A DNA stretch of 64,000 bases, taken from Candidatus Omnitrophota bacterium. GTDB taxonomy: Bacteria > Omnitrophota > Omnitrophia > Omnitrophales > Aquincolibacteriaceae. The notes under the pieces are model-generated. The model did not search any database and was not told where the DNA came from. It worked only from the letters and a program-made list of their open reading frames with translations. The stretch lies in assembly GCA_016930235.1 (NCBI GenBank), contig JAFGHI010000010.1:250-64249 (forward strand), in the 5' to 3' direction. Every line of letters starts with the position of its first letter. The stretch's first letter is position 1. Positions 2,970 to 53,959 of this stretch are shown piece after piece. The translations under genes were made by a program, and so were the position numbers.

Positions 2970-2999
2970 TGCTTATGCCTTTCTGATACGCATGTTCAA

Positions 3000-10087: not shown

Positions 10088-12788
<2,701 letters not shown>

Positions 12789-26968: not shown

Positions 26969-28203
26969 TTGTTCCTCTTTTTGACGATTACACTTCGAAT
27001 ACGACGTTGCCGGATCACATCATGAATGCGAAATTCAAATTCTCGCGTGTCAAAAACCTTGCCCTTTTTCGGAACTTCTCCTAACAGCTCTAAAATGTAT
27101 CCTCCGAGCGTACTTGCTTCATCCGCTACAAGATCAGAATTAAAATATTCATTAAAGTCCGCCAGAGGAACTTTGGCTTCGACAAAATATTCTTGGTGGC
27201 CAAAAGGCCTTATAGGTCTTTCCACAACCGCATACTCGTCATAAAACTCCCCGAAGATTTCCTCGAGGATATCCTCCAAAGTCACAATACCTGCCGTTCC
27301 ACCATATTCGTCAACACAAACCGCGAAATTATGTGTTTTCCTTCGGAACTCCGCAAGCAGGTCATCAATTCGTTTAGCCTCAGGGACATAAAGCGGCTCG
27401 ATCACCATCGATTTTAAATCCTGAGCCGGATTCAACATAAATTCTTGCACGGATGTTACGCCAACAATATTGTCGATCGATTCCTGATAAACGGGAAAAT
27501 AACTAAAATGATGGCGCCGGATGATATCTTCGTGTTTCTCCCTGGGGTCGTCCAAATCCAAAGCGGCCAAATCAATGCGGGGCGTCATGATATCTTTAAC
27601 CTGCCGCTCACCCAAATCCATGAGTTTTTGGATCATGTAACGCTCTTGACGGTCAAGGACACCTTCTTCTTCACCTATTTTGACCAACGTTTTGAGTTCA
27701 TCTTCAGAAATCTGATCGGAAGACAACTCTTTACGGATCGGGATCAGGAGTTTGACAATGCGGTTACTGATGGAACGCACGAGCCAACGAAACGGAAAGA
27801 AAATAACGGCAAAAACTCTCAACGGGAAAGAAACGATAAAAGCCACCAACTCATTAAAACGCACCGCCAAAATCTTGGGTATGATTTCTCCAACCACAAT
27901 CAAGATAACCGTAAAAATAAAAAGTGCCGGCCCCGTTCCCTTACCTCCCCACACTTCCATAGCTACCAAGGTGACAATCGCAGTCGCTAAAACGTGAACG
28001 AATAGATTTCCAATAATAATGGTATTAAGGGTTCGCCTCGGATTGCTGAGATGATCCTGGATCCAACCGATCATCCGCTGGTGTTTTTCTCCTAACCGGT
28101 TCTTTTCAATCTTCGTCAGAGAAAAGATAGCCGTCTCGGCTGCCGCAAAAAATCCGGCGAATAGCAGCAAAACCACGAGGATCAAACCATGAGCTAAAAG
28201 CAT
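26965..28203 (-). CDS. CNNM/CorC family transporter (DUF21 + CBS pair + CorC_HlyC)
   Basis: 412 aa, paralogous to the adjacent gene and overlapping it by 4 nt. Confidence 0.8.
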   Translation of the reverse strand: MLLAHGLILVVLLLFAGFFAAAETAIFSLTKIEKNRLGEKHQRMIGWIQDHLSNPRRTLNTIIIGNLFVHVLATAIVTLVAMEVWGGKGTGPALFIFTVILIVVGEIIPKILAVRFNELVAFIVSFPLRVFAVIFFPFRWLVRSISNRIVKLLIPIRKELSSDQISEDELKTLVKIGEEEGVLDRQERYMIQKLMDLGERQVKDIMTPRIDLAALDLDDPREKHEDIIRRHHFSYFPVYQESIDNIVGVTSVQEFMLNPAQDLKSMVIEPLYVPEAKRIDDLLAEFRRKTHNFAVCVDEYGGTAGIVTLEDILEEIFGEFYDEYAVVERPIRPFGHQEYFVEAKVPLADFNEYFNSDLVADEASTLGGYILELLGEVPKKGKVFDTREFEFRIHDVIRQRRIRSVIVKKRNK

Positions 28204-36114: not shown

Positions 36115-36525
36115 CTAAATCTCATGCACCCCGGCTTGGCCTAGGACTTCTTCAGCTGCGAAAATAGGAGCCTCCGCGCGCAAAGCTAGAGCCACGCTAT
36201 CTGAAGGACGGGCATCGATCATCACCGTTCCGTTTTCATTCCGCCGGACCTGCAATTTCGCAAAAAAAGTATTACTCTCCAATTTATCAATGACCACACG
36301 CTCCAATTTTGCGCCCAGTTTCTCAATCGCCGACAACATGAGATCATGCGTTAAAGGCCTCGGCGGTTTGATGCCGCTCAGCTTCAGTTTGATCGCATTG
36401 ACTTCAGCCATCCCAATCACAACAGGAAGATAGCGCGTCCCTTCCTTTTCCTTAAAAATAATTACTTGTTCGTTTCGATTTTCGTCAATCTTGATCTTGC
36501 TTAATTCCAGTTCAACGGTTCCCAT
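36115..36525 (-). CDS. bifunctional nuclease family protein (BFN/DUF151)
   Basis: MGTVELELSKIKIDE...LPVVIGMAEVNAIKL... shows the DUF151/BFN pattern. The start at 36525 overlaps the upstream gene by 14 nt. Confidence 0.65.
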   Translation of the reverse strand: MGTVELELSKIKIDENRNEQVIIFKEKEGTRYLPVVIGMAEVNAIKLKLSGIKPPRPLTHDLMLSAIEKLGAKLERVVIDKLESNTFFAKLQVRRNENGTVMIDARPSDSVALALRAEAPIFAAEEVLGQAGVHEI

Positions 36526-38182
36526 GAGTTTTCTTCTCTTCTGAGGCTTGATCGTTTTTAGCCAGCCGGAAGCGCCCGTTTTTTTCCCGGTTGACCTGAT
36601 CCTGAAAATGGAGATGGACACGTTTGCCTTCAACAATTTCTTTCTCAATAATTTCCTGTTCGGCCAGAATCTTTTCGATCTCCTGCTCGCGTGAGCGTAT
36701 TTCGCTCTCGATTTCTTTCTGCTTCTCAACAAGCTCCCTGAAATAACCCTCTTTCTCGACTAAACGATCCGCCAATTGACTTCGCTTCTCGTGAATTCCC
36801 TGTTCGGCTTGAATTTTACGCATCTCCTGTAATTGCCGTTTAGCCTCTTCGATTTGCGCATCATAACCTTGAAGCTTCTGGATGGCTCCCTGAAGCTCTG
36901 TTTCTTGTTTTTCACAAGTCCGGCAGAGTTCCGTCACTCTCTCTTCGGACCCCTTGTATTTGGACTCCCAGGATTGAGAGGTTCGCCGCGCTTCCTCCAG
37001 TTCCTGATATAGCTTAGCGCGGTCTTTGTCCACTTCTCTTAAACGGTCTTCTACCTTTTCACGAAGTGTTTTCTCGGTCTGCTGTGCCTCCTGCAAGATA
37101 TGGATCTGTTGTTCTAACGTCTCCTGTTTTTCACGCCAACGGCTCAATTGTTCGCCGCTTACCCGCGCACCCCGTTCTAGGTTTTCCTTCTGCCGTTCCA
37201 AATCCTTAACGCTTTCGGCAAGCTCTTCGGCCTTGAGACGCCACTGGTCAATCATTTGGGTCGCCTGTTGAAGCCTCTCCTCCAGTTGTTTGTTTTTTGT
37301 CTCCAATTCTCCCCGGTACTGACGGCCTTGTTCTTCCTTCTCTTTGATCCGGCTTCCGAAATCAAGCCGCTCGTTTTGAAAAACCCTCGCATTTTCCTCG
37401 AGTTCTTTATTGCGTTTGCGTAAGGTCTCCATTTCTTGACGCGTTTGGACCATCTTTTCTTCAAAAAGCTCTCTCGCCTCCCGGTACTCGTCTTTAAGGA
37501 CATCATACTTTTCTTCTAAATTGGAAAGCAAGGCACGTGCCTCTTTGATCTCCTTTTCCCTTCCTTGAAGGAGGCTTAACTCCGGAGCCGGCAACGGTCT
37601 TTGAGCACGAGCCTCTTCAAGTTTTCGAATGATCTCCGTTAATCGGGAAACTTCTTTTTCAAGATCTGCGTGGGACCTTTTCCAATTTTCAATTTCAGAT
37701 TCCAGTTCGCGCCGCTCGGGTTCCGGCAACCCTGGAATCGGCATTACCTCCGCGTGCTCAGACTTTTCCGGGCTCTCTCTCATCATACGGATCGCATTTA
37801 AAGCCTCATCAGGTCCCAAAACCTCTTGGACCTCTTGATTCTTCTGATGACTCTCCCAAGTATTGAGAAACGCTAAGTTGGGAGGTTCAGGCCAAACGGT
37901 CCGGTAATATTTTCTTTTGCGGAAGGTATCATTGGTGAGAACGATTTGAGCATTGGCGGCTTCAAAAAAACCCTTCACTTTATGGGCAATGTCTTGATTC
38001 AGATTATCCAAAAGAATGATGGGTGTGCTTTCTACCAAATCGCTGGCTTCTTCGGAGGAAAGTGAAAAGACTTCGGAAATTTTGAGGGCAATCCGTTTCT
38101 TGTCGATCTCGCTCAGAATCGGATTCAGAACAACACACCAGTTTTGCTTTTCGCTTCGCGATTTCTTATTGCCTAGCAACAT
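36512..38182 (-). CDS. L7/L12-C-terminal-domain-like protein fused to ~450-aa coiled coil
   Basis: The N-terminal ~80 aa (EEASDLVESTPIILLDNLNQDIAHKVKGFFEAANAQIVL) closely parallel the ribosomal L7/L12 CTD (EAKDLVESAP...EAGAEVEV). The remainder is an uninterrupted E/K/R/Q-rich heptad coiled coil. Confidence 0.6.
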   Translation of the reverse strand: MLLGNKKSRSEKQNWCVVLNPILSEIDKKRIALKISEVFSLSSEEASDLVESTPIILLDNLNQDIAHKVKGFFEAANAQIVLTNDTFRKRKYYRTVWPEPPNLAFLNTWESHQKNQEVQEVLGPDEALNAIRMMRESPEKSEHAEVMPIPGLPEPERRELESEIENWKRSHADLEKEVSRLTEIIRKLEEARAQRPLPAPELSLLQGREKEIKEARALLSNLEEKYDVLKDEYREARELFEEKMVQTRQEMETLRKRNKELEENARVFQNERLDFGSRIKEKEEQGRQYRGELETKNKQLEERLQQATQMIDQWRLKAEELAESVKDLERQKENLERGARVSGEQLSRWREKQETLEQQIHILQEAQQTEKTLREKVEDRLREVDKDRAKLYQELEEARRTSQSWESKYKGSEERVTELCRTCEKQETELQGAIQKLQGYDAQIEEAKRQLQEMRKIQAEQGIHEKRSQLADRLVEKEGYFRELVEKQKEIESEIRSREQEIEKILAEQEIIEKEIVEGKRVHLHFQDQVNREKNGRFRLAKNDQASEEKKTHGNR

Positions 38183-39967: not shown

Positions 39968-42900
39968 TTACGCGGCTTTTTGGATTTGGAGAGCAGCCTG
40001 GACTTCTTGACGCAACAAGCGATCAATCGCGGAAACATTCACAATCGGGCGTCCCTCGGAATCAAAAACAATAATCTGATTTTCGGGTCCTTCTCCCATT
40101 TGCCGAAAGAGATAAACGGCTTTGAGGAGTTCGGCTTGGACATTCTTAGCATCTGTTGAAGTCCTGGCCATTAAAGCAGAGGCAAACGCGAACGCCGTTT
40201 GAGTCATCCTCCCCAAAACTTGAGATTCTAATTTAGCTTCGCTTGTAAGGCGAATGCCGACCGGCAGAACCTGAGCCGTCTGCTCCATAAGAATTTCATC
40301 GCTAAACTCCATGACGGGCAGGACATTCTGTCCCGAATTTAGGATGGTCACCTGCCGGGGACTGGATGCCGCCGTAAAGGGAATCGGTATCGACTTTAGA
40401 ACTTGGATTAAAGCATTGGCGGCCTTTTTATCGCCGAGAATAGCAAAGCGATCCAATTCTCCCCGCAGGAAATAGGACCGGATGATATCCCCGTATTGTC
40501 CGATCGCGCTTTCACGATCCAACCTCGAGATCCCATCTTTTAATTCAGGAATATCCAGCCCCAAAGTTACCTTGCCTTGATAGGTATCTGCCACCTGCTG
40601 CATGAAAGTTACAAGATCCCGAACCGCCCGTTCCGCAATTTTCGACGTCATGCTATAAACTTCAGGCCTGTCTTCAAAAGCTGTGCCGAATCCTTGACGG
40701 CTTAAAAGTTCTTCGACGGCAATTTCGACAGCCCGCTTGAGAACCTGTTCCAGTTCCGCACCGTCAATTTGATGCGCGACGATCGGTCGCACGGCTGAAA
40801 GCACCTCCGATTGATCAGGCAAAACAAAATCTGCGGCTAATGCTTCGGCCGGAATCAAGGATCGCGCAATCGTTAAAGCACTGTCCACCCAAGTTAAGCG
40901 GAGTTCCGAACGGGGTTCCATCGGTGTGCCGTAAAGTTCCTCGGGCGTCCATGTTCCATCCCAGCCCTCCGGTTTCTTCATCACCGCAAGTTTTTTCAAA
41001 GCAGGCTCAGGTTTGGGTTTTGCCTGCAGCAGAGATTGTCCTTGCTTCTGTAAGCGAATCTGCTGCCAAGAGGCAAGCGGAAGCATAATTTCGATCTTCC
41101 CTATCCCGGGTAAAAGCGGGTTCCGAAGATGATACTCGATTTGGACCCCCGAGTCGGCCGCAATTCCGACCAGAACTTCCGTAAAGATCTCAAAGGCATC
41201 CCAAAGAGGATTGCTTACGCGATAACCTTCGCTCATTTGAGGACGCTCGGGTAGGGGTAAATAAACGCTCACACCCTGCTGCATATCCGGTCTCGATTTA
41301 ACAAGTTCAAAAAGACGAAGAAATTGTTCCCGGTAAGATGCCTCGTTCCACCCACCCTCATTAAAATCCGCAATGCCTTTCTCGGGATAACCCGCAATAT
41401 CCTGATCCAGGGCATCCAGCGTCATGACGCGCGGAGCAGGAGGTTTCGCGGTTCTTTTATACTCCTCGGCAAAAGTCGAAGCCGCCTTTTCTCCCATAAC
41501 AACAAACCGTTCATTTTGTCTCAATAACCCTTTTTCATACAAGATATCAAAGACCTCGCGAATCGGCATTTCTTGCCTTAATTCCGAGCGAACTTCTTCA
41601 GTCTGGGGGATTCCGGGACCCCGGAAAGACTTCGTGGCAACAAGATAATGATATTGCCGGTTATCATCCAGAAGGGTTCCGCGCTGAACATCAGACCATT
41701 TGAGGGCCTTAAACGCTTGGAGATCGCTTACTGTGAAGGGTTCCTCTTGAATGGAAATAAAACGGCCCCCCGGATTCAAGACAAGCCAGGCAACATCCGT
41801 CTCATTTGTTTCAACCACCGTTCCCTTAGTCAAAATTGAAAAGACAATATCCTGACTCTCTTTCCATTGAGGATTTTGATACTGGCTTAAATCACTTTCT
41901 CCGGTTAGAACAACCGTCTTCTCAGTTCCTGTCAATCCCAAGAAAGAGTTTAAGGAATCACGCAATCGGGATCCGATCGAAATATCAACCGTGCCGCCAA
42001 CTTCGGAAACTTGAGAGGTTTCGGACAATCCGGGCTGTTGTTGGTAGGGTTGCTGCCTTTGAGGTTGTTCTGCGGGAACTCGCTCCACTTCCGGAACAGG
42101 CTGAACAGCATCAGGAGAAATACTCTTCGCCTGCACCTGAGATGAAATATCGCTGATCTCACGTAACTCCGAACGCGGGCGCTGCCTTCGCGCAATCTTA
42201 AACCTCTGAAACACGTTCCCCTGCAAAATCCTATCCTGAATGGTGTTCTGCAACCGGCTCACCGCTTGATCAAACTCATCAACCGATGGCATCTGTTCTC
42301 CGCCCGCCAAAATCCGCTCAACGAGGGGCTTGATCTGTGATTCAATTTCCTCTGGTGTCGTATTCCGGACAAATTCCAGCATCTCCGGGACCTGATTCGT
42401 CTCAGCCACCTGGTAAACTTCAATCTCCGGCCGTATCAAGCGTAAAGCCAGAAGGGCCAAGAGCAAACGCCTGGAACCACCCCACACACCGTCAACTGTT
42501 ACCCACTTGCCTTTTGAATTCATAGAAGCCGCCACTTCCGCAATCTTTCCGACCAGATTCGGATGAAGCTGTCTAAGTTTCTTTTGCGCCTTTGGATCAT
42601 CGCGCCCAACCTGATTAATCGAAACCATTAAGTCATTTGACCCGACAGCATAAAAATCCGCATCGGGAGATATCATGGCATTCTCCTTCTCAAACATAAA
42701 ACCAATAAGGATCTGATTAATAATCTGACGCGCCTTTTCTTGCTCTTCTTCGACAATCCCGCTTAAATACTCCGTTTTAGCCTCCTCAATTAATTCAAGG
42801 ATACCGTTTATGTCTCTCTGATCAATAATATCCGGAATAAGAATATGCAAATTGACTTCGGGCTGCGGCCCCTTTCCTTCTCGCGCAAGTTCTTCTAAAC

Positions 42901-45900
42901 GATTATAAGCAGCAACCTGAGCCTGAAAAAAAACCATCAGCTGCATTTTGCCGAATTCCCGAAACTGTTTGAACAAGTCTCCATAATGTGGGTGAGTGCC
43001 TTCCTTATCCAAATAGAAACGAACACCCAAACGGTTGCGCCCTTCTTCTAAGGGGATCTCTAAAATCCTTCTCACCTCATCTGGTTTTCTCCCTTCGGTA
43101 AGGATCTTCGGGCGTTTGTCCATCTGAACATCAAAAATTCTCACAATAAAAGGCCGCCTTACCTGGAAAAAAGGCTGCATGAGAATCCCTTGGATTGTCT
43201 GTGCGAATCGGACCCGGTCATTTTCAATCCCCTGCCATCCGGGATGGGCCGCCAATTGCTCGGTTCGAAAAAGTCCGACACCCTTTCCACCGTGACGCTC
43301 AACAATCGACCGCAGTTCGGCCCGCCTCTGAAAATCCTCAGGTTTCGTATCATCCACATAAAATAAAATCTCCCGACCCGCAAAGAAAACCGGCTCATCG
43401 GCCCGGGCAAGAAAAAAGGCATCTAAATCAGCATAACTTTCCCTCCTTGCAAACCATGTATCCCGCGTTTGGTAATCAGGTCTCAACACAACGAACCCCT
43501 CACGGCCATCAGCCATGGCCCAACCCTGAAGTGTTTCCTTGGAAAATTCTAACCCGGCAGCTTCAAAATCTGCAGCCGGTATCACTACAATCCCCAAATC
43601 CCGGGCGAAGGTCACCCAATGTGACAAGCTTGTGCCACCCGGGCTCACAATCGCAACAACCCTTCCGTGACCACGCAAAGAACTCAAAAGATGGTAAAGA
43701 TCCCGCTCATTCTCAATAGTCTTCGCGAACACCACCAAATCACGATCGACTTGTTGGGTTGGGCCAAAGCGTGCACGGTCGTAATAACGCATGAGAAATT
43801 CAAGCGCCTCAGGTTCAACATCGTTGACACGCCTGCCCTCACCGCCCCTATTATCCGCATAAGCATTGAACATAGGGATCATGGTTTCCTGAAAATAACT
43901 GATGATGCCAGCTTGAAAAGGATCGTCTGGCTGAATTCTCTCCCATTGGCCACTGCGTATCTCATCCAAAACATTCTGAAAAACCTCTGCGGCATGCTGC
44001 CGGTTCTCACGAACCCGCCGTGAGATCTCGTCAAAAATCATCCGCAAAATCTCCTCAACGGCATGCTGCTGCTCCTCGCCAACCCATTGCCTGATCTGCG
44101 TGACAACTCCCGGAGGGAGGAATTCCATTTCAGCGGGCACCTCCCCTTCAAGGGGCATCTCTAACACTATTTTTTTATGTCCCTCCCAGAATCTTTCCAG
44201 GACTCCAGCCTCATTTTCAAACGTCTGTTGGGCCCTTAAATCCATAAAATGGCGCATATAGAACAATGCCGTGAGATATTCGATAGACCGGCCGGTTTTT
44301 AAAATATCCTGGCGTACCTGAAAGTCAAATCTCTTCACCCATGCTTTCCATTTTTCGATGTTTGTATGTGCCTCTTCATGCAAGGTCCGATCAACGGCTG
44401 CAATGCTGGCTTCGTCTTCTTTCTTTTTAACCATCGCGCTGATTCTCTTTTGAATTTCCGCCTCATAAGATGCCGTAATGGCATCTAGAAATTGATCCAG
44501 AACATCAACCATAACCTCTTCGTGCCGGCGAACTTCCTCTTCTTTTTTTACCTGAACTTCTTCCTCAAGATCACTCATCTCAAAAATATAGTCATACGTA
44601 TCCAAATCTTCTTGGATGCTTTCAACATACCCTCGAAGCTCTTCATTCACTTGAATCATGCGTTTAAAAAGTTCACCACTGGGTAAATTACGGAAATTTG
44701 CAATATGTGCGTTGAGAAGGTCAATAATAATTTGAAGGGCTTTTTGAGGCGTTTTCCCCTTATCAAGGTGGTAAGCCAAGCGCTCAAAGACATCCATCTT
44801 GATCGTCTTAGGCCTGCCATGTTCATCGATTGTCATACCATAGACTGTATTATCAGCAAACATCCTACGCCTCGTATAGGAAGCTTCTTTCTGACCGTCC
44901 GCAAGCTTAGAATCGTCTGTATTCAAACCAAAAGGCAAATTCAGGAACAAATCAAATACTTTGGTCATCAACCGGTCTTTGGCGGTTTGGATTAAGACTT
45001 CGCGGACTTTTTTATTATGATCCTCGTCGGGTAAATGGATAAAATCCTCCCGATTGACAAGGGCAGGGATCACCGACCCCTGAATAAAACCCATGGCATA
45101 TACCGTCGTCGGGGCAGGAGCCGTTTGTTCTGCCAACTCCCGTTTCATTTCGTCAAGCATTTGCCTTAAGACTTCATCACTTCGGCTCTCTTGATGGCGG
45201 ACCCGATAAATAGCCTCTTCAAGAAGAAGCCCTAAAACTTCTTGCATTTGTTCCCCTAAAGACATCTGGCGCTCACTCTCATCCAAAACGCGCCGCCAAA
45301 TATTTGTTAATGCATGGACTTCATTTTCAACCTTTTGGGCAGCTTCCCGTGGCGTATCAAAAGGGCGGACAAGCGAGAAATTCACGCGCTTGGCTTCCCT
45401 TTCCCAAGTAACTATTTCACCCGAGGCAATAACATTCATCGCCGGCGAGGATCCCCGAAGGATCAGATTGTTAGGTCCTGTTCGAAGCTCGGAGCGTTGT
45501 GATTTAGATTCCGCCTGCACCGGGACTGACGGGACATCGACATAACGTTGATGGATAGCAAACTGCTGGAGGTGATGTATCAAAAGTTCGATTCTCCACC
45601 GCCAAGAACGGATGACTTGATAAGACAGCGTTACGGCAATCGCTGCCATCAGGGTTAGAACCGAACAGGACAAAGCAAAAGGAATATTCCCTTCATCCCA
45701 AGAAATTGCCACACGAATTAAAAAAACAATGCCTGCCATAGCCGTCATACTTCCCACTAAGAACCAACGAAATCCGGCCGCAAAAATCGAATTATACAGC
45801 ATGTCTTCATCCAACACGTCGACCACTTCTTGAATTCTTTCTTGGATATTCAAATCTTCATCCTCCAGAATTTCTGTGATTTCAGCATCATTGGATAGGC

Positions 45901-48900
45901 GCAACCACAAATCCCGATAAACGGGATTGTTGATTTTTTGATCGAGCCAACCCGCAAATTCCCCGCGAAGACCTGTGAGATCTTCATCGCGAAATTCTGA
46001 ACGCAAGTTAACACCGGCGGCATCATCACCCGCCCATCTCAACATGGGCTCACCTGATTTCCTTTGTGCAATTTCAAGCCCCCCATTCCCCCAAGTAAAG
46101 AAAATCCCTTTCCACCACAAAGCAAGAGAAGAAACCAAAGCGAAATCCGCAAGAGCACTCGTTAAAAGATTATTCGATGAAGGATACTCCCGGACTTTTT
46201 CGATATCCCCGATTGCAAAACCTCCGCGCTTTAATAAATCCCGCTTAATCGAATTAACTTGGTAAATTTCTCTCCGTCCCTGAAACTCTTCACCTGGAGC
46301 AGGAGATCTCTTGATATCCTCGTAGTAATAATTCGGCGCTTTCTCTAAGGTCAAATCCAATCCGCCATTTTCGGCAATGGCTTTCTGTAATTCCATGGGA
46401 AGCGAAGATAATTCCTCAATCTGTTCACCGCCCAAAAAGTAAACTGTCCGAAGTTTCTCCCGACCTTCCTCCGGATGCCGCCACACAAAAGATATTGTCC
46501 AACGGTCCCTACCAAGCTCTAAGCGGTTAATCGTATAATCACGCACACCTAGTTCTTCTAAACTCATTAAGAAAAGGGTGCGAATATTGATGCCCAGAAA
46601 ACTCATTGTCAAGATGCCGTGAACGCCGCCCTCATCAACTCGCGATGCATGAACTCGTTCCCGTAAAAGGGGCTGATATTCCTCCCCTTCCTCAGAAACC
46701 TTCTCACCGAAGGTAGCCTGATCACTCATGATAAGCTGCGTTGCGTTCGTCGTAAAAAGAGCACGAATAACATCGAATCCCGAATTAAAATACCAGGCAA
46801 ATTTTTCTTCATTCTTCCGGTTGACCTTGGAGCGAATGGCATCCAAAAATTCATATTCACTAACCCGCATCCACTCGCTGTAGTCATGGGCGCGTCCTTC
46901 ATGGATCCAAGCCGCATCCGAAGTAATGGCCGGCTCCGCCCGCGCAGGCTTTCTTAACTCCGAACGGCCGAGAGATTTGCCGGCCACCGCCGGAACTTTC
47001 GTCTTCTGAATCTGCCGAGCGACAAGATTCCAGACCGTAAATTCATCGAGTTCAGATGTAAAAATTATCCGACGGCCGCCGTCGAAAACCAAAGGTTCAG
47101 CGGCCTTAAGCAAATAAGTGTTGTTGGCAACAACGTTGCGGACGGCCCGGATGTACCCCATAAAATGATCACTCCTCGCAGCAGATTGGGCTTGAGGGCT
47201 GCTGTTATAATAATTAGCCCAATAAAGAATTTGATCATTGTTCCCCTTTGGGAGCGGCACCGGGATAAGAAGGTACTTGATCCGCGCAAGAAAGACTGCG
47301 GCGGCGGGATGAACTTTTAAATACTCTTGGAAGTCGCGGGAACTTGCTTCTTGGCCGGACGCAAACCACCTGAGTGTTACCTCATCGACATCATAAAAAA
47401 TAGGCATGGCCATGGCGGTCCAGTCCTCACGCCCCAAAACCCGACTCAAGAGATATTCCGCCGATCCAGGTTCACCTCCATAGAATTCGTCGGTCTGCAA
47501 TTGATCGGACTCCACCACAAGGGTCCGGGTCAAAAGTTTTTGGATATTCTCCCGGTATTCGGGTGATTCCTCTGAATCCGTCAACGCCAGAACAGCATCG
47601 ACGATTTGAACAAGCGGAATGAGACGGGTTTCAAAGTCTAGTGCGTTTTTATCGATCTGAAGGCGGAGATTTTGATCCATCGGCGTAAGGGCAGTGACAT
47701 GTTCTTCTAAAGGCTGCTCTTCTTGAGGAGAAACTTCTAATGGAATTTCAAACGGTTTCGTAACAGCTGGCGTTTGCGGCACTACCGTTACGTCTGCTGG
47801 AGCTCCAGCCTCAAGAGGAGCCTGATCTAAGGGAGCAATAATGATGGAAGAGGGTTCTTTGACCGTACCCGCTGCAACTCTCGAAATTTGCCTATCGATG
47901 ACCAACACAAATCCAAACGCAAGAACCGCCAACATATATCCCGTGAATATATCGAAAACACGTTTCCCCGAACGATAAAACCAGTTCGTTCCCAATAGAA
48001 GAATTCCGCTCCCCGCAGCAAGAACGAAAACCGCCAGCAAAGGAACACCGAGATGGTGTCCAAAACGGACGATCATCGCCGAAGCCATCGTGAGTGAAAG
48101 AACCGTCATCAAACTTGATACTAAAAAATGTCGAACATTTTCCCAATCAATGATTCGCTTTAGCATCCTGAACTGGTCCGCTCTAAGTTCCGAACGTTCA
48201 CTTGTCTCAAGAGAAGACGTCTTTTCGATTTCTTGACGGACAAGACGCCAAACTTCGAATTCTTCAAGATCGCGCGGCAAAACCGCAATTCCATCGATCT
48301 CGATGGGTTGAGTTACGCTTAACGGATAACTCTTCCCCGCCACCTTTGCGCGGGCCGCTTTAATAATTGCGCCAAAGTTATCCACTTTGGCCGCCCGTTT
48401 AGCTTTTGGACTTCCGTTGTAGTAGATGGCCCAATAAAGAATTTGTTCATTTTCACCAAAAGGAATGGGCGAGCGAAAAAGCCGATATTTGACCCGAGCT
48501 AAAAAGATTGAAGCTGCAGGATGGGTGCGCAGATATTCTCTCAATTCCCGTGAACTTTTGTCCTTGCTCGACGCAAATCGCCGGATCGTCGTTTCATCCA
48601 CATCATAAAAAACACGTTGGACAATAGCCTTCCAATCCGCCCGCTGTAAAATCCGGGTCAAAAGATATTCCGCCGTTCCGGACCCGTCTCCGATATTAAC
48701 TTCAACGTTGGCCACACCCGCCCCGGGGCCTCCCCGATATTGTTCGTCGGCCCGCAGTTGATCCGATTCCACCACAACGGTTCGGGTAAGAAGCTTACGG
48801 ACATTTTCCCGGTATTCCGGCGATTTATCGGAATCTATGAGTGCTACAATTGCGTCAACAATCTTAACGAGAGGAATCAAGCGGGTTTCAAAATTCTTGG

Positions 48901-51900
48901 CGTTTTTATCGATTATAAGGCGGAGGTATTCATCAATCTGTTCATCGGTGAGAGCCGCCTTTCCAATACTGCTCTGCTCCCCTTGCAGAACCCGCTTTAC
49001 GGCTTCAATCACATTCGGTTCGGGAATATCACGAATGGGGGCAACGGGTGCTGCTTTTTCAATGGAGGCAGGTGCTATTTCCGGAGGAGGCCTCGGGGCT
49101 TCAGGCGTAGTTGTTCGGCTTATTCCGACTTCCTGTCGAGCTTGGACATCCCTAACATCCTTCATATGCAGGAACGATACGACTCCAAAGGTGAGAACAA
49201 AACTTAAAAGGCCTACCATGATATTCGAAAAGCGCTCACCCAATTTGAGTTTCCTGCCGGTAAAATAAAGGAAATACGCAAAACCGGCCAAAAGGAAAAA
49301 AACAGCCGCCGGAGAAACTCCCAAGTCGTATATGGCTGGAATACCCAAGACCGGCACACCGAATAAAACAGATAAATCAAAAACCAAAGACGCCAGGTAT
49401 TTCGTCAGCCGGATATCCCATGATTCTTTTTTAGCGATTGCTTTTTCCGCCCGCAGCTCGGATCTCTGTAATGGTCCAAAAATCGCATCAACTTTTTCCC
49501 TTATAACACCGGCATAAGCAAATGCCTGGAATTGATCAAATACCCCCAATCGTTTCGCCGCGTTATAAGCCGGCACATGCACTTTACCCACCTTGTCACT
49601 TACAAGTATGAGAAACATTTCTTGTTGATACATAAAAGCAGAGCCTTTAAAAATTTTAGCCATGAGAACAGCGCCCACCATAAAATCGCCCCAAAGCTCT
49701 CCCCATTGGACCACAACCTCGGGAGTAATTGCTTCATCCGTAAAAATAGCCTCCATCAAATCCATAGCACCTGAAAGCTTTCCTAAAACCTCAACGGACC
49801 AACTATAATCTAGCGCCTGCGCTCTTAGGGCCTCATTGTCAGAAGCAAGGGAGTAATTCATCAACATCAAAAGGGTATTAGCCGCACTGACTCGAATTAG
49901 CGGCATTGCAGTTCCATCCCCTACGAGATCACGCAAATCATTCATCACCTGAAGCGCATCCATACCACTTTGACTTAAAGCCAAACCTCTGCCGGTCAAT
50001 TCACGCAAGGCATCTTGCCGCGCCTTCACATCGATACCCTTGTTTTTCGCATTCGCAAGCAAATCCTGAATCTCCGCCCGCAGTTCGGAGCGGGTATCTG
50101 CGGAAACTGCTTCTACTTCTCCTCGGCGCAGTTTGCCTTCATAAATCAAAACACGGGCTTGGAGAGGATTTAATCGATGAATTGCATCAAGGGCTTTGGG
50201 TAAAATATCAAGCCATTGGAGCGTTTTTCCGGCCCTCTTGATGCTAATTCGTCGCTCATAGAGTTTGGCATCCGGCCATGTCTCCCACTCGGCAATCCTT
50301 TCCAACGTATCCTGCACCCACATCTCGGGATTAAAACCAAAAATTAAACTCTCCGTTTGTTCTTCAATTTCGTTACGCGATAATTCCATAGCAGCTTGGA
50401 TTCGACCTTGGAGGCGTTCCTCAATGGATTGGATTTCGATCACGGCTGCATCCACATTTGGGTTCATCGCATAGATACTCCCTCCCAAAATATTGGTAAC
50501 TTGGACAAGATTGATCTGTAATCTTTGTAAACTTGTAAGCTCCCTGACGTCATCATCACGGACATCCCCTTCAAGATGAGTCCCTAAGACACGCAGCTGA
50601 ACCAAGACATCCGGCAGAAGAGCCCCGTTTAACTGATCGATTCTTTCTGCAATCGCCGCACCCTCTGTAAGCTCCTGCTCGAGAACCCGTTGAAGCCGGT
50701 CAATAGCCACATCCGCATTGATCAATGCAAGAAAATAATCGTTGATAAGCGATTGCCTTAATTCTGAACGGCCCGACACAAGCACCGACTCACGCATCCT
50801 GGCTTCAACCATCAAGTTGCGCAGTGTTTGCTCTAATTGTTTAACTTCCGCCGGGTCTTTAGAATCAAGATACGGCATCATCAATTCCGAAAGCTGGACC
50901 ATGCGGTAAATCGCAAAAAGAAGATCTGGCATATCCATCTCTTGGATGGCCTGTTTTGAAGGTAATCGCGTTACTGCCTCTTGAATAACGGACTTCTCGA
51001 TTGGCTTATCATCACCAATGTTGGCCACTGCTTTGATCTGCTCAAGCCAAAGGTCCAGGACTCCTCTCACATTATCCAAGATCGCTATTTTCTCCTCGAA
51101 AGCAGGCTCTCTTTGATAAAAGCTCATCTTTGTAAGATCACTCAATGCTAAATTAAACTGGCTTATCTTTCCGGACAGTCTTCGCAAAAACCAGTAAAGA
51201 GCACCCGCGTCAACAACGTCTCCTTGTATCCCGTCCCACAAAAGATTCATGACAAGCACGATTGATTGAATCACCCCGTGCAACCGGGTCTCTGTTAGCT
51301 CTTTCTGGTATTGCCGGGCCTCCTCATCCATGATGATCTTCTCCCCGATTGCCTTGTCAGCCAAAGTGAGCTCCTCCCCGATGATCTTCATGGTTTCTAA
51401 ACCGTTTACCACAAATGCTCTCCGACTTTCCGTCTGACTGAGATCAATCGCCGATGCCCCCTTGTCAACGGACATAAAACCTTGCTTCTGAAACTGAAGA
51501 ATCCTCAACGAGAGAACCCTCGAACGAAGCTTCGCGGCGTAGCTTCCGATAATTTCCATCTTTGCCTTAAGGGCTGCACTCGTCGCCCCTAAAGGCATCC
51601 GTGAGCCTCTGGATAGAGTTTCCAGGCACATAATCAACCCCTCAAATCCTTCAATCAACGGAATTTCACTTTCATGAACCGGAACCGGCGGTTCCCCTAA
51701 AAGTTGGTCAAAAACACTCAAAGCATCCAGAACACGAGTCAGATGCGGCTCAAACATACCCTGTAACATCTGCAGGATGAGCGGATCGCTTAGATTCTGC
51801 CGGCTAAAAGACATCGTCGCATCTAACGCTAATCGCGAGGATGAAAGTGCTCTCGCTAAATGCCGGGCCATTTGCTGGCTCGTCATACTCCGCAGTTCAG

Positions 51901-53959
51901 AGCGACCGGGGACTTGATCTAGGGTATCAATTTGGACCGGGATCCCCTGCAATCCACTAGGAACAACACCTTCTGATACTAAACGGCGTTCAACACCTAA
52001 GTGAGGCAAAACACCTGCAGGAAGTTTGGAAAGGTTAATGGCATCGCCGGCCGCAAGAACGGGGTAAGTAAAACCATCGGAGGTCGTGGCTGTCTGGAGA
52101 AGATTCAAGATATTTTGTTCGGTGAGGTCGCCTTGGGCGTCCAGATCGCGGATCCCTTGAATGAAACGTTCGATATTCTGAAGCCATTTTTGACGGAGTT
52201 TTTGGATGCTTTCTTCATCCAGGATTTCATCGATAAAGAGGGTATACTTCCCTGCTTGATCTAATCTCTTTTGGCCTGCCAAATCTCGGACAATTTGATC
52301 ACGCCAATGTTTTAAAAGGGTGCCGGGGTCTTCACCGCTTTCCTCAACCAGCTTATCGCGAGTCGAACGGATAAAGGCTTTGTAAATATTGATTCGGTCA
52401 TTCTCGACCCGGAAATACCCTTTCCAAGCCACCTCACCCCGCATATTTTGGCGGTAACTCGTTTCATCAGGAACCGAACTGATTCTTGGCATTACCAGAA
52501 CATAAGAAATTCCCTCTTGGCGGAAACGCTCAGTCAAACCTTCGGTATGAAAACCGCCAGCGATTAGGACACTGGAACTGTGTGAAGAGTAAAGAGTATC
52601 TCGTGAAGAGCTGCTCTGCATCTTTTGAATCAAATTTTGGTAAAAAGCCTGATCACGCGCTTCGGCTGTTTGATAAAAAGCGATGTGATGTTTTAAATCG
52701 TCTTGTCCCAGAGGGATTTCCTCAAATTCTTGACCTTGGATTATAGTTTCGATACGTTTCCAATCCTCATAGCCGATATTCAATTTTGCGAGCCTCGTAA
52801 GGAGATCCAGATGAAGGCCTCTGCGGTTAAGGTCCCGTTCAAGGTCAGTTCGGTAGAATTTCTCCTTCACGGATTCTGTATACGCCTGGAATTCCTTAAA
52901 AAGCCTTGTGCCGCGAAGATCCTTCATCCTCAGCTGATTTTGCATAAGGGGCTTAAGAGTGTTTGACACTTCAAGAGAAATCCCCTTTTCTTCGATGAGC
53001 TCCTTCATGAATAGCGCAAAGGCTTCGGGAGTTATTTGGGATATCTGAAAGGCCTGCCGTTTTTTATGAAAACGTTTAAGGTCCTCACGCCCGCCATTTG
53101 TCGAATCACCTTGATGCAAGAAATCCTCGACTTTTTCGGCAAGGGCCATGACTTCCCGGTCTAAATGAACGCGGTCCACGAATTGATTTTCGTATTCCCC
53201 CAAAATCAAATCGAGCTCGGACCCTTTGGCCAGCTTCTGATAATTTGAAAGTTTCTTCAGAACGGTTATGAAGGTTTCCAAATTTTCACCAAAATCCTGA
53301 AGCAAGCGATCGATCGCGAGAAGTTCTTCGGGATACGTGTTTTGTTTTTCTTCTTGAAGCCCTTTTTCCGCAATTGAAATTCTCCGGAGGAAGTCTTCTT
53401 CTTTCCCTGCCGCCTGAAGAAAATAGGCCAGCCCTTGTTCATAGAGATCCCAATTCTCAATCCCCTCATATTGGCCCTCGACATGGTTAAGAATCGCGGC
53501 AGCCGTACTTCCTGTAAGCTCCCCTTTTTCGTGATAATCATTTAATACCTTTTTTAATAATTCCTGATCCGGAAAACTTCTGAGGATCTGAGGATCCAAT
53601 CGGCTAGCAGCACCTTCTAAAGCGATGAGGTCCACACCGTAAGTCTCTTGAAAATATCCGATAAGCCTTTGAATATTTAGCTGAGCTTCAGGAATAGCGT
53701 GGGCATCTTGAATAAGGACAACGGTCTGATCGTTTTGGCCTTGATACCTTTCAAGAACCTCTCCGATCTTTTCCGGGATTTCGATCTTTGAAATTTCAAA
53801 GGGTATAGATTTCTCTAATTTTTTGTCAGCCAAAGGTAAGAGATTTCCCGAGGCGTATACAGGCAAACTTAGATGGTTCGTCACAAAGAAAGTCATGACG
53901 ACTATTAAAGCCACTGATTTAATGAGTGTAGACCTCTCCTGCATGAAGTCTCCCTTCAT
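39968..53959 (-). CDS. giant (4663 aa) secreted/multi-pass membrane protein with internal duplication, embedded PEP-utilizing phosphotransfer module and ten RSELR motifs
   Basis: A single uninterrupted 13,992-nt ORF. It has an N-terminal signal peptide (…LSLPVYA|SG) and hydrophobic TM clusters near aa 1425-1455, 1521-1600, 1945-2025, 2603-2625 and 2722-2785. Aa 3430-3500 resemble a PEP-utilizer phosphohistidine swivel domain (GGTSLSHWVTFARDLGIVVIP). Aa 3555-3800 resemble the PEP/pyruvate-binding TIM barrel (GVGLFRTEQL ... GSNDLMVSINQVGRDD). The second ATG at 53944 has the better SD (AAGGGAG). Confidence 0.85.
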   Translation of the reverse strand: MKGDFMQERSTLIKSVALIVVMTFFVTNHLSLPVYASGNLLPLADKKLEKSIPFEISKIEIPEKIGEVLERYQGQNDQTVVLIQDAHAIPEAQLNIQRLIGYFQETYGVDLIALEGAASRLDPQILRSFPDQELLKKVLNDYHEKGELTGSTAAAILNHVEGQYEGIENWDLYEQGLAYFLQAAGKEEDFLRRISIAEKGLQEEKQNTYPEELLAIDRLLQDFGENLETFITVLKKLSNYQKLAKGSELDLILGEYENQFVDRVHLDREVMALAEKVEDFLHQGDSTNGGREDLKRFHKKRQAFQISQITPEAFALFMKELIEEKGISLEVSNTLKPLMQNQLRMKDLRGTRLFKEFQAYTESVKEKFYRTDLERDLNRRGLHLDLLTRLAKLNIGYEDWKRIETIIQGQEFEEIPLGQDDLKHHIAFYQTAEARDQAFYQNLIQKMQSSSSRDTLYSSHSSSVLIAGGFHTEGLTERFRQEGISYVLVMPRISSVPDETSYRQNMRGEVAWKGYFRVENDRINIYKAFIRSTRDKLVEESGEDPGTLLKHWRDQIVRDLAGQKRLDQAGKYTLFIDEILDEESIQKLRQKWLQNIERFIQGIRDLDAQGDLTEQNILNLLQTATTSDGFTYPVLAAGDAINLSKLPAGVLPHLGVERRLVSEGVVPSGLQGIPVQIDTLDQVPGRSELRSMTSQQMARHLARALSSSRLALDATMSFSRQNLSDPLILQMLQGMFEPHLTRVLDALSVFDQLLGEPPVPVHESEIPLIEGFEGLIMCLETLSRGSRMPLGATSAALKAKMEIIGSYAAKLRSRVLSLRILQFQKQGFMSVDKGASAIDLSQTESRRAFVVNGLETMKIIGEELTLADKAIGEKIIMDEEARQYQKELTETRLHGVIQSIVLVMNLLWDGIQGDVVDAGALYWFLRRLSGKISQFNLALSDLTKMSFYQREPAFEEKIAILDNVRGVLDLWLEQIKAVANIGDDKPIEKSVIQEAVTRLPSKQAIQEMDMPDLLFAIYRMVQLSELMMPYLDSKDPAEVKQLEQTLRNLMVEARMRESVLVSGRSELRQSLINDYFLALINADVAIDRLQRVLEQELTEGAAIAERIDQLNGALLPDVLVQLRVLGTHLEGDVRDDDVRELTSLQRLQINLVQVTNILGGSIYAMNPNVDAAVIEIQSIEERLQGRIQAAMELSRNEIEEQTESLIFGFNPEMWVQDTLERIAEWETWPDAKLYERRISIKRAGKTLQWLDILPKALDAIHRLNPLQARVLIYEGKLRRGEVEAVSADTRSELRAEIQDLLANAKNKGIDVKARQDALRELTGRGLALSQSGMDALQVMNDLRDLVGDGTAMPLIRVSAANTLLMLMNYSLASDNEALRAQALDYSWSVEVLGKLSGAMDLMEAIFTDEAITPEVVVQWGELWGDFMVGAVLMAKIFKGSAFMYQQEMFLILVSDKVGKVHVPAYNAAKRLGVFDQFQAFAYAGVIREKVDAIFGPLQRSELRAEKAIAKKESWDIRLTKYLASLVFDLSVLFGVPVLGIPAIYDLGVSPAAVFFLLAGFAYFLYFTGRKLKLGERFSNIMVGLLSFVLTFGVVSFLHMKDVRDVQARQEVGISRTTTPEAPRPPPEIAPASIEKAAPVAPIRDIPEPNVIEAVKRVLQGEQSSIGKAALTDEQIDEYLRLIIDKNAKNFETRLIPLVKIVDAIVALIDSDKSPEYRENVRKLLTRTVVVESDQLRADEQYRGGPGAGVANVEVNIGDGSGTAEYLLTRILQRADWKAIVQRVFYDVDETTIRRFASSKDKSSRELREYLRTHPAASIFLARVKYRLFRSPIPFGENEQILYWAIYYNGSPKAKRAAKVDNFGAIIKAARAKVAGKSYPLSVTQPIEIDGIAVLPRDLEEFEVWRLVRQEIEKTSSLETSERSELRADQFRMLKRIIDWENVRHFLVSSLMTVLSLTMASAMIVRFGHHLGVPLLAVFVLAAGSGILLLGTNWFYRSGKRVFDIFTGYMLAVLAFGFVLVIDRQISRVAAGTVKEPSSIIIAPLDQAPLEAGAPADVTVVPQTPAVTKPFEIPLEVSPQEEQPLEEHVTALTPMDQNLRLQIDKNALDFETRLIPLVQIVDAVLALTDSEESPEYRENIQKLLTRTLVVESDQLQTDEFYGGEPGSAEYLLSRVLGREDWTAMAMPIFYDVDEVTLRWFASGQEASSRDFQEYLKVHPAAAVFLARIKYLLIPVPLPKGNNDQILYWANYYNSSPQAQSAARSDHFMGYIRAVRNVVANNTYLLKAAEPLVFDGGRRIIFTSELDEFTVWNLVARQIQKTKVPAVAGKSLGRSELRKPARAEPAITSDAAWIHEGRAHDYSEWMRVSEYEFLDAIRSKVNRKNEEKFAWYFNSGFDVIRALFTTNATQLIMSDQATFGEKVSEEGEEYQPLLRERVHASRVDEGGVHGILTMSFLGINIRTLFLMSLEELGVRDYTINRLELGRDRWTISFVWRHPEEGREKLRTVYFLGGEQIEELSSLPMELQKAIAENGGLDLTLEKAPNYYYEDIKRSPAPGEEFQGRREIYQVNSIKRDLLKRGGFAIGDIEKVREYPSSNNLLTSALADFALVSSLALWWKGIFFTWGNGGLEIAQRKSGEPMLRWAGDDAAGVNLRSEFRDEDLTGLRGEFAGWLDQKINNPVYRDLWLRLSNDAEITEILEDEDLNIQERIQEVVDVLDEDMLYNSIFAAGFRWFLVGSMTAMAGIVFLIRVAISWDEGNIPFALSCSVLTLMAAIAVTLSYQVIRSWRWRIELLIHHLQQFAIHQRYVDVPSVPVQAESKSQRSELRTGPNNLILRGSSPAMNVIASGEIVTWEREAKRVNFSLVRPFDTPREAAQKVENEVHALTNIWRRVLDESERQMSLGEQMQEVLGLLLEEAIYRVRHQESRSDEVLRQMLDEMKRELAEQTAPAPTTVYAMGFIQGSVIPALVNREDFIHLPDEDHNKKVREVLIQTAKDRLMTKVFDLFLNLPFGLNTDDSKLADGQKEASYTRRRMFADNTVYGMTIDEHGRPKTIKMDVFERLAYHLDKGKTPQKALQIIIDLLNAHIANFRNLPSGELFKRMIQVNEELRGYVESIQEDLDTYDYIFEMSDLEEEVQVKKEEEVRRHEEVMVDVLDQFLDAITASYEAEIQKRISAMVKKKEDEASIAAVDRTLHEEAHTNIEKWKAWVKRFDFQVRQDILKTGRSIEYLTALFYMRHFMDLRAQQTFENEAGVLERFWEGHKKIVLEMPLEGEVPAEMEFLPPGVVTQIRQWVGEEQQHAVEEILRMIFDEISRRVRENRQHAAEVFQNVLDEIRSGQWERIQPDDPFQAGIISYFQETMIPMFNAYADNRGGEGRRVNDVEPEALEFLMRYYDRARFGPTQQVDRDLVVFAKTIENERDLYHLLSSLRGHGRVVAIVSPGGTSLSHWVTFARDLGIVVIPAADFEAAGLEFSKETLQGWAMADGREGFVVLRPDYQTRDTWFARRESYADLDAFFLARADEPVFFAGREILFYVDDTKPEDFQRRAELRSIVERHGGKGVGLFRTEQLAAHPGWQGIENDRVRFAQTIQGILMQPFFQVRRPFIVRIFDVQMDKRPKILTEGRKPDEVRRILEIPLEEGRNRLGVRFYLDKEGTHPHYGDLFKQFREFGKMQLMVFFQAQVAAYNRLEELAREGKGPQPEVNLHILIPDIIDQRDINGILELIEEAKTEYLSGIVEEEQEKARQIINQILIGFMFEKENAMISPDADFYAVGSNDLMVSINQVGRDDPKAQKKLRQLHPNLVGKIAEVAASMNSKGKWVTVDGVWGGSRRLLLALLALRLIRPEIEVYQVAETNQVPEMLEFVRNTTPEEIESQIKPLVERILAGGEQMPSVDEFDQAVSRLQNTIQDRILQGNVFQRFKIARRQRPRSELREISDISSQVQAKSISPDAVQPVPEVERVPAEQPQRQQPYQQQPGLSETSQVSEVGGTVDISIGSRLRDSLNSFLGLTGTEKTVVLTGESDLSQYQNPQWKESQDIVFSILTKGTVVETNETDVAWLVLNPGGRFISIQEEPFTVSDLQAFKALKWSDVQRGTLLDDNRQYHYLVATKSFRGPGIPQTEEVRSELRQEMPIREVFDILYEKGLLRQNERFVVMGEKAASTFAEEYKRTAKPPAPRVMTLDALDQDIAGYPEKGIADFNEGGWNEASYREQFLRLFELVKSRPDMQQGVSVYLPLPERPQMSEGYRVSNPLWDAFEIFTEVLVGIAADSGVQIEYHLRNPLLPGIGKIEIMLPLASWQQIRLQKQGQSLLQAKPKPEPALKKLAVMKKPEGWDGTWTPEELYGTPMEPRSELRLTWVDSALTIARSLIPAEALAADFVLPDQSEVLSAVRPIVAHQIDGAELEQVLKRAVEIAVEELLSRQGFGTAFEDRPEVYSMTSKIAERAVRDLVTFMQQVADTYQGKVTLGLDIPELKDGISRLDRESAIGQYGDIIRSYFLRGELDRFAILGDKKAANALIQVLKSIPIPFTAASSPRQVTILNSGQNVLPVMEFSDEILMEQTAQVLPVGIRLTSEAKLESQVLGRMTQTAFAFASALMARTSTDAKNVQAELLKAVYLFRQMGEGPENQIIVFDSEGRPIVNVSAIDRLLRQEVQAALQIQKAA
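46952..48181 (-). repeat. giant-gene internal duplicated unit, copy 2 (aa ~1927-2336)
   Basis: Has the same TM cluster (HHLGVPLLAV / FGVPVLGIP; FYRSGKRVFDIF / FTGRKLKLGERF), Pro-rich linker and soluble module (NALDFETRLIPLVQIVDA...ILYWANYYNSSP...). It also ends in RSELR. Confidence 0.8.
48182..49450 (-). repeat. giant-gene internal duplicated unit, copy 1 (aa ~1504-1926)
   Basis: The unit is a TM cluster, a Pro-rich linker and a ~240-aa soluble module (NAKNFETRLIPLVKIVDA...ILYWAIYYNGSP...) ending in RSELR. It is paralogous to copy 2 at both protein and DNA level (e.g. ccaataaagaatttg at 48431 and 47221). Confidence 0.8.

Follow-up and report, generated by a model that had tools for sequence, protein, structure and literature searches.

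Far inside the product of a giant open reading frame (ORF) in a 64-kb window of a Candidatus Omnitrophota contig (the window being the whole stretch of 64,000 nucleotides that was analysed) there is a complete, deeply divergent homologue of Enzyme I of the phosphoenolpyruvate (PEP)-dependent phosphotransferase system (PTS). It is full-length and not a two-domain fragment. Its similarity to Enzyme I is far beyond chance, and that residues 2827-3928 of the giant ORF are an Enzyme I homologue with the anatomy described below is close to certain. The best explanation as a whole, at a probability of about 0.6, is that this unit would be phosphorylated by PEP on His3447 and would pass the phosphoryl group to a carrier, in a regulatory relay on the cytoplasmic side. 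An earlier reading of the window from its letters alone (the sequence-only reading) had flagged a phosphohistidine domain and a PEP-binding barrel here, with coordinates that take in only about one third of the real unit.

The embedded Enzyme I-like unit

Both the swivelling His domain and the PEP-binding barrel are present, as judged by Pfam, by profile-profile alignment and by predicted structure. The strings that had been quoted for them are found at residues 3432-3448 (GRVVAIVSPGGTSLSHW), 3560-3569 (GVGLFRTEQL) and 3773-3788 (GSNDLMVSINQVGRDD), and the codon that had been proposed for the phosphohistidine is indeed the CAT of His3447. In a Pfam scan of the whole giant ORF, with E up to 1, the sole significant family is PEP-utilizers_C (PF02896), as had been anticipated for this region. 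Its match spans aa 3554-3841 with E 1.1e-14, or 1.8e-16 when the region is excised (54.7-60.6 bits against a gathering cut-off of 22.8 bits). A phmmer comparison with PDB sequences has chains of Enzyme I as its only significant matches, the best with E 4e-9. Over 480 columns, hhalign aligns the family profile with 16 genuine Enzyme I sequences at a probability of 100% (E 1.9e-39). Family columns 313-876 correspond to Enzyme I 39-550, so that the alignment extends into the helical N-domain of Enzyme I, and it pairs the histidine of a family PHW motif with that of TSH in Enzyme I. AlphaFold2 models were made of the module (His domain and barrel, aa 3373-3928, from a 19-sequence alignment; pLDDT 89.1, pTM 0.86) and of the whole unit (aa 2827-3928, from an 11-sequence alignment; pLDDT 79.6, pTM 0.62). 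The first match of the predicted structure in Foldseek is 2hwg, phosphorylated full-length Enzyme I (E 5e-18, TM 0.60), followed by crystal structures of the Enzyme I barrel domain, with TM of about 0.8 on the target, and then by PPDK and PEP synthase.

Iterated searches revealed that the conserved unit is larger than flagged: it begins a few residues past one copy of a pentapeptide, RSExR, and stops at the next. Its N-domain (about 365 aa as a family domain) opens with two short strands that bear the motif G.SP.M..V..GE.V.WE, after which there are helices only, ending in GRxxxY. The last of these helices align with the helical N-domain of Enzyme I, hhalign reaching Enzyme I residues 39 to about 135; in the predicted model the helical domain is about three times larger than its counterpart. 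Given this helical upstream domain and the alignment of its last helices, the arrangement is Enzyme I-like, which bears out what had been proposed from the sequence. The accompanying claim, that no ATP-grasp domain precedes the module, also holds. PPDK_N (PF01326) has no match at E up to 1 in the giant ORF and none in the ten relatives scanned, and what lies ahead of the module is the N-domain of strands and helices. A weak NCBIfam match to PPDK regulatory protein at aa 3081-3194 (E 0.13-0.21) falls inside this helical N-domain and was taken as chance. Between the N-domain and the swivel domain, which starts with the family motif FLMRYYD, the window protein has a helical insert that is not in its relatives. 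A long linker helix then leads to the barrel, and a family-specific helical extension completes the unit (Table 1).

An exhaustive HMMER search of 1.84 billion representative proteins gave about 20 specific relatives of the module, with E from 1e-94 to 1e-18. The true family escaped a word-indexed protein search with the module, in which ordinary Enzyme I alone was found, about 25% identical. Most relatives are ORFs of 2.9-7.6 thousand amino acids (kaa), all those with a taxon name being Candidatus Omnitrophota, and a scan of genome collections gave eight loci, four in Omnitrophota metagenome-assembled genomes (MAGs) and four in MAGs of 'uncultured bacterium'. Relatives of about 1,000 aa are P0020, P0023 and P0028. 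P0020 is confirmed as free-standing, with genes called on both sides of it on a 97-kb contig, and the cluster of a fragment, P0027, includes a 950-aa Elusimicrobiota protein. The embedding of such an enzyme in a huge protein, which the sequence-only reading had called unusual, is real but not unique: the window protein belongs to a family of giant ORFs from Omnitrophota and metagenome contigs, to some members of which automated annotation already gives names such as 'putative PEP-binding protein', 'ATP-binding protein' or 'HPr family phosphocarrier protein'. As these relatives, about 20 in number, retain the module while the remainder of each ORF differs, selection on the module is evident.

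Residue numbering was checked against the alignment with 2hwg and against the invariant columns of genuine Enzyme I. Among 19 family sequences, which are 26-37% identical to the window module, the histidine and the equivalents of R296, E298, R332, D335, K340, E431 and D455 are invariant, and those of N454 and R358 nearly so. The sequence-only reading had expected the phosphohistidine and PEP-binding Cys, Arg and Glu residues to be conserved. The histidine and the Arg/Glu/Asn/Asp/Lys ligands are kept, but the Cys is absent, with Asp3823 in its place. Across the family the position of Cys502 is Glu in 14 members, Asp in four and Cys in one, the outlier P0033. Cys502 is the proton donor of Enzyme I and its substitution strongly impairs activity (Garcia-Alles 2003, as reported in passages of PMC13598208 and PMC4072538). 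Because a carboxylate is conserved at the general-acid site, and all else is kept, the exchange would seem to be functional replacement rather than decay.

Proposed phosphoryl transfer, its acceptor and the alternatives

In the mechanism proposed, PEP and Mg2+ would bind the barrel via R3565, R3607, K3615, R3647, E3757, N3775 and D3776, and the swivel domain would bring His3447 in line to take the phosphoryl group from PEP. Asp3823 (Glu in most relatives), standing in for Cys502, would protonate the pyruvate enolate. The swivel domain would then rotate and hand the phosphoryl group to a histidine-carrier protein. That the unit is a working PEP-dependent phosphotransferase, relaying through His3447, seems somewhat more likely than not.

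In seven relatives the carrier would be a domain, HPr or HPr-like, that directly follows the module on the same chain (P0022, P0019, P0026, P0017, P0016, P0015 and P0014). That of P0022, which, judging by its length and the size of the contig, is probably the 3,415-aa ORF of locus L007 (SICL01000037.1, Candidatus Taenariivivens baikalensis), is Pfam-significant, has the motif GLHARP and has the overlapping repeat HSELRSEIRSELR at its end. P0019 has an HPr domain homologous to it (jackhmmer), and a profile built from the domain that P0026 has at this place joins those of P0017, P0016 and P0015, and three copies in tandem in P0014 (aa 1651-1996), to the HPr of P0019. All these domains keep the histidine, in a G-x-H-x-x-P context, except one of the P0014 copies. 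The free-standing P0020 lies, on three contigs, directly after a CNNM-CBS gene fused to a PTS EIIA-2 (PTS_EIIA_2) domain with the motif GVAVPHA. A 116-aa gene that follows P0020 was considered as an HPr and is not HPr-like.

Several observations weigh against a working relay. Neither the giant ORF nor the 64-kb window was found to have HPr, EIIA or any other PTS gene. Searches of the window with the fused HPr and HPr-like domains (tblastn, jackhmmer) gave nothing, in the giant ORF at E up to 1, and a scan for G[LIVMF]H[AVTS]R[PA] in all six frames of the window gave no match. Because the window protein has no HPr-like domain, its acceptor would be either in trans, encoded elsewhere, or a segment of the giant ORF that was not recognised as such. 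The general acid Cys502 is not conserved. The Enzyme I equivalogs of NCBIfam give only weak and partial matches, TIGR01417 at 44.6-49.7 bits, far under its cut-off of 341.7, and NF008382 at 28-31 bits against 824. PEP-utilisers_N (PF05524), the helical HPr-binding domain, has no Pfam match in the giant ORF, and the Pfam family of the His domain (PEP-utilizers, PF00391), taken alone, has E 0.01 and 15.8 bits, below its 23.1-bit cut-off. The profile-profile and structural matches, and the invariance of the histidine in 19/19 family members, make up for this last score. Finally, the signal-like peptide at the N-terminus of the giant ORF and a naive count of its helices would put the unit on the outside of the cell, where PEP is lacking.

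Some of these points, together with the deletion or shift of the Arg465 region in most relatives, are what would be expected of a pseudo-enzyme or ligand sensor, a domain that binds PEP, pyruvate or a related acid without turnover for want of the Cys, and acts in allostery or as a scaffold. It would account for the replacement of Cys502, for the lack of a detected acceptor in the window ORF and for scores so far under the Enzyme I equivalog cut-off. It is nonetheless unlikely: the replacement is a conserved carboxylate (14 Glu, four Asp) and not random decay, the phosphohistidine and all metal and phosphate ligands are invariant at the level of divergence already given, and the HPr-like domains fused in seven relatives keep their own histidine, which is sensible only with phosphoryl transfer. 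Still less likely is transfer of the phosphoryl group from the histidine, as in rifampicin phosphotransferase or dihydroxyacetone kinase, to a small molecule or glycan on which other units of the ORF act. It draws on the same lack of a detected HPr in the window ORF, on the glycosyltransferase and methyltransferase units of relatives and on the sugar-metabolic clusters that published surveys describe in Omnitrophota giants. The conserved unit, however, has no substrate-binding domain on its swivel domain, and whatever is directly fused to it is HPr-like. An enzyme of PPDK or PEP-synthase type, making PEP from pyruvate with a nucleotide domain supplied elsewhere, is very improbable. Such enzymes are structural neighbours of the unit and West-Roberts et al. 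note PPDK_N domains in larger Omnitrophota giants, but PPDK_N has no match in the window ORF or the family members scanned, what precedes the module is a helical domain that aligns to the N-domain of Enzyme I, and Enzyme I ranks higher by sequence, by profile and by fold.

On the preferred reading, phosphorylation of His3447 by PEP with transfer to a carrier, the relay would be regulatory and of PTS-Ntr kind, reporting the PEP/pyruvate state to other units rather than serving sugar uptake. What suggests this is the histidine-kinase ATPase, triple receiver, ACT and HPr domains that occur with the module in relatives, and the CNNM-CBS-EIIA neighbour of P0020. Relatives also carry starch-synthase-type glycosyltransferase and methyltransferase (CheR) units. 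The giant ORF of the window has no histidine-kinase ATPase, receiver, ACT or HPr domain.

RSExR boundaries and membrane topology

The unit is segment 9 of 12 into which the giant ORF is divided by RSE[L/F]R, of which it has ten copies with L and one with F, against 0.014 RSELR and 0.13 RSExR expected from composition. No frame of the window has RSE[L/F]R beyond the giant ORF. The 11 sites show synonymous codon variation and have unrelated flanks, and the target of selection is therefore the pentapeptide itself. In most related giant ORFs RSExR (x = L, M, V, A, S, I or T) occurs 4-13 times, and in four of them 1-3 times; in the family proteins 99 copies are observed against 2.1 expected. Five free-standing or short homologues of 0.7-1.4 kaa have none. 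Over the window and 12 fetched loci, open frames that reach 2,000 aa or more have 1.69 RSExR per 1,000 aa and the other frames 0.07. Its positions are those of boundaries: in eight relatives it is 370-405 aa ahead of the module, just before the N-domain, and it is also found directly behind the module or behind the HPr-like domain. P0020 and P0023 end precisely at the place where RSExR would be, as do the fragments P0021 and P0027.

Segment 1 has a Sec-like signal peptide (...PVYA/SG) and a domain (about 640 aa) in which the motifs DAH, EG and GGFH are invariant; in most relatives this domain is likewise N-terminal and is followed by the first RSExR. All its homologues are annotated as hypothetical, and a profile search of PDB with it gave no match. 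That it is a Tiki/ChaN/TraB-type hydrolase, and hence a candidate processing protease, is an unproven lead from one of five members with a sub-threshold match to PF04187 (E 0.002).

Hydrophobic helices of the giant ORF are at aa 1520-1598 (three), 1943-2024 (three) and 2729-2783 (two). The first two groups belong to segments 5 and 6, tandem paralogues that are 45% identical over 381 aa, each with three predicted membrane helices and then about 320 aa of soluble domain. If the chain stayed uncleaved, these two segments would have opposite orientations in the membrane. The last two helices form a hairpin in segment 8, and because the RSWRWR behind it is positively charged, the positive-inside rule would place the unit on the cytoplasmic face. 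There it would be tethered by the hairpin if the chain is not cleaved, or be freed by cleavage at RSELR. Glycosyltransferase, CheR, histidine-kinase ATPase and receiver domains are found in relatives that have a signal-like N-terminus but are otherwise without membrane helices, and the ATP-, S-adenosylmethionine- and PEP-dependent enzymes of these relatives need cytoplasmic cofactors.

The enrichment of the motif, its boundary positions, the ends of free-standing homologues, the clash in topology between segments 5 and 6, and the presence of cytoplasmic enzymes in signal-led relatives together suggest, tentatively and at somewhat less than even odds, that the giant ORF is a polyprotein with RSExR as its processing site. 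RSExR may alternatively be a docking, sorting or phosphorylation motif. The description of the unit as fused into a membrane protein, with which the sequence-only reading had begun, is possibly misleading: the RSELR that bound it may be where the chain is cut, and many relatives lack transmembrane helices. If the ORF is a polyprotein, cleavage would turn segment 1 into a secreted leader and segments 5, 6 and 8 into small membrane proteins, and would free a cytoplasmic Enzyme I-like protein of about 1,100 aa. A whole-word search of the literature for RSELR, RSExR and RSEMR gave only software names and an unrelated PL7 alginate-lyase motif.

Genomic setting and known systems

The giant ORF corresponds to NCBI MBN1687848.1, with 100% identity over the 1,102-aa query of segment 9. 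That entry is a hypothetical protein of a Candidatus Omnitrophica MAG, and its length of 4,658 aa fits a start at the second Met. The Pfam scan gave no C39 or S8 peptidase, dockerin or SecA domain in the giant ORF, and its segments 1, 7, 11 and 12 have no match among PDB sequences. The 64-kb window around it is ordinary chromosome, with a riboflavin operon directly upstream of the giant ORF, a thioredoxin reductase downstream and, elsewhere, genes of purine biosynthesis, LigA, FtsI/MraW, ProAB and two CNNM/CorC transporters. The latter are adjacent, lack EIIA and lie about 12 kb downstream of the giant ORF; that they echo the CNNM-CBS-EIIA neighbour of P0020 may be coincidence.

Other genes of the window merit mention in their own right. 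A ParA/MinD-type ATPase (23775-24872, minus) has a C-terminal glycogen-binding module (AMPK1_CBM/CBM48), an unusual pairing. The N-terminus of a 556-aa protein (36512-38182, minus) is weakly like the C-terminal domain of ribosomal L7/L12 (E 2.6e-4, below the cut-off); behind it lies a highly charged coiled coil of about 400 aa. A tyrosine recombinase with Phage_integrase and SAM-like N-domains (9226-10242, minus), between the purine genes and ligA, is probably of XerC/D type and not the integrase of a mobile element.

Table 1. Coordinates of the giant ORF, the Enzyme I-like unit and associated features in the window (Enzyme I residue numbers precede their counterparts)
Feature	Coordinates	Strand	Residues (aa)	Remarks
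Giant ORF	39968-53959	minus	4,663 aa	13,992 nt; contains the whole finding
Complete Enzyme I-like unit (segment 9)	42176-45481	minus	2827-3928	between two RSELR
Family-conserved N-domain	44210-45475	minus	about 2829-3250
Window-specific helical insert	43808-44209	minus	3251-3384	about 130 aa
Swivel phosphohistidine domain	43481-43807	minus	about 3385-3493
Linker helix, His domain to barrel	43406-43474	minus	3496-3518
PEP/pyruvate-binding TIM barrel	42362-43372	minus	about 3530-3866	ligand residues R3565 to R3786 as listed below
C-terminal helical extension	42176-42361	minus	3867-3928
His189 equivalent	43619-43621	minus	H3447	codon CAT
R296 equivalent			R3565
E298 equivalent			E3567
R332 equivalent			R3607
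D335 equivalent			D3610
K340 equivalent			K3615
R358 equivalent			R3647
E431 equivalent			E3757
N454 equivalent			N3775
D455 equivalent			D3776
R465 equivalent			R3786
Cys502 equivalent	42491-42493	minus	D3823	codon GAC; Cys not conserved
Segment 1	51905-53959	minus	1-685
Segments 5 and 6	46967-49450	minus	1504-2331
Segment 8 two-helix hairpin	45611-45775	minus	2729-2783	followed by RSWRWR
RSE[L/F]R site 1	51890-51904	minus	686
RSE[L/F]R site 2	50756-50770	minus	1064
RSE[L/F]R site 3	50078-50092	minus	1290
RSE[L/F]R site 4	49451-49465	minus	1499
RSE[L/F]R site 5	48182-48196	minus	1922
RSE[L/F]R site 6	46952-46966	minus	2332
RSE[L/F]R site 7	45989-46003	minus	2653
RSE[L/F]R site 8 (upstream RSELR)	45482-45496	minus	2822-2826	abuts the unit
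RSE[L/F]R site 9 (downstream RSELR)	42161-42175	minus	3929-3933	directly past the unit end; free-standing homologues stop here
RSE[L/F]R site 10	41576-41590	minus	4124
RSE[L/F]R site 11	40898-40912	minus	4350
Two adjacent CNNM/CBS (CorC-type) proteins	26027-28203	minus
CNNM-CBS-EIIA gene beside P0020	L010, 6385-7932			ENA ERZ27256924 contig, outside the window

By sequence, by profile and by structure, the best match of the unit is Enzyme I itself (PtsI of E. coli, 2HWG), with which it has in common the domain order, the fold, the active-site histidine and the equivalents of R296, R332, K340, R358, E431, N454 and D455. It differs in being only about 25% identical, in having Asp or Glu for Cys502, in scoring far below the PtsI equivalog cut-off, and in a helical N-domain of about 350 aa against about 115 aa in Enzyme I, to which the window unit adds its 130-aa insert. 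Large insertions in the barrel, the C-terminal helical extension and the embedding in a 4,663-aa ORF also set it apart.

EI-Ntr (PtsP) is a paralogue of Enzyme I that serves regulation and not transport. The likeness here is the EIIA-2 domain, of Ntr/fructose type, fused to the CNNM/CBS transporter beside the free-standing P0020; the unit, unlike EI-Ntr, has no GAF domain and forms a separate clade, and no NPr or EIIA-Ntr was found in the window. In multiphosphoryl transfer proteins (Rhodobacter FruB(HI), E. coli PtsA/FryA, DhaM) Enzyme I and HPr are on one chain, as an Enzyme I-like unit and HPr are in P0022 and P0019. However, the order in these relatives is Enzyme I-like and then HPr, within ORFs of several thousand residues and bounded by RSExR, and the window protein is without HPr. 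PPDK and PEP synthase have the swivel His domain and the PEP barrel in common with the unit, but their defining ATP-grasp is absent from it.

The giant proteins of Omnitrophota ('Archaeovorins') come from the same phylum and likewise have unrelated units of enzyme size tiled in a long ORF, with a signal peptide and transmembrane helices. At 4.7 kaa the window ORF is about ten-fold shorter than these, which are at least 30 kaa, and it does not match their content of glycosyltransferase, methyltransferase, peptidase and NUDIX domains, with C39 or S8 near the N-terminus. PPDK-type domains are mentioned in the larger giants, and their cleavage points are stated to be unknown (West-Roberts et al. 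2023, 10.1101/2023.11.21.568195). Two preprints on these proteins (10.1101/2023.11.21.568195; 10.64898/2026.06.07.730766) suspect cleavage; neither describes an RSExR motif or an Enzyme I-like unit. Fusions of Enzyme I with HPr, PPDK-type domains in giants and the annotation 'putative PEP-binding protein' were thus already known. New are the clade with a carboxylate for Cys, the RSExR boundaries, and the evidence that a family of giant ORFs has a His-phosphorelay built in.

If RSExR is a processing site, its copies would be the cleavage points reported as missing for the Omnitrophota giants. The boundaries that it marks offer a concrete and testable answer to whether, and where, these proteins are cut, and they provide rational points at which to split giant proteins for structure prediction and expression. 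The unit and its relatives form a deep-branching clade of Enzyme I that had not been described before, and its carboxylate at the place of the catalytic cysteine is a natural experiment on the mechanism of PEP utilisation. The combination of Enzyme I-like, HPr-like, histidine-kinase and receiver domains across the family indicates that this group of giant ORFs carries its own PEP-driven His-phosphorelay, which implies that the activity of these giant proteins would be under the control of metabolic state.

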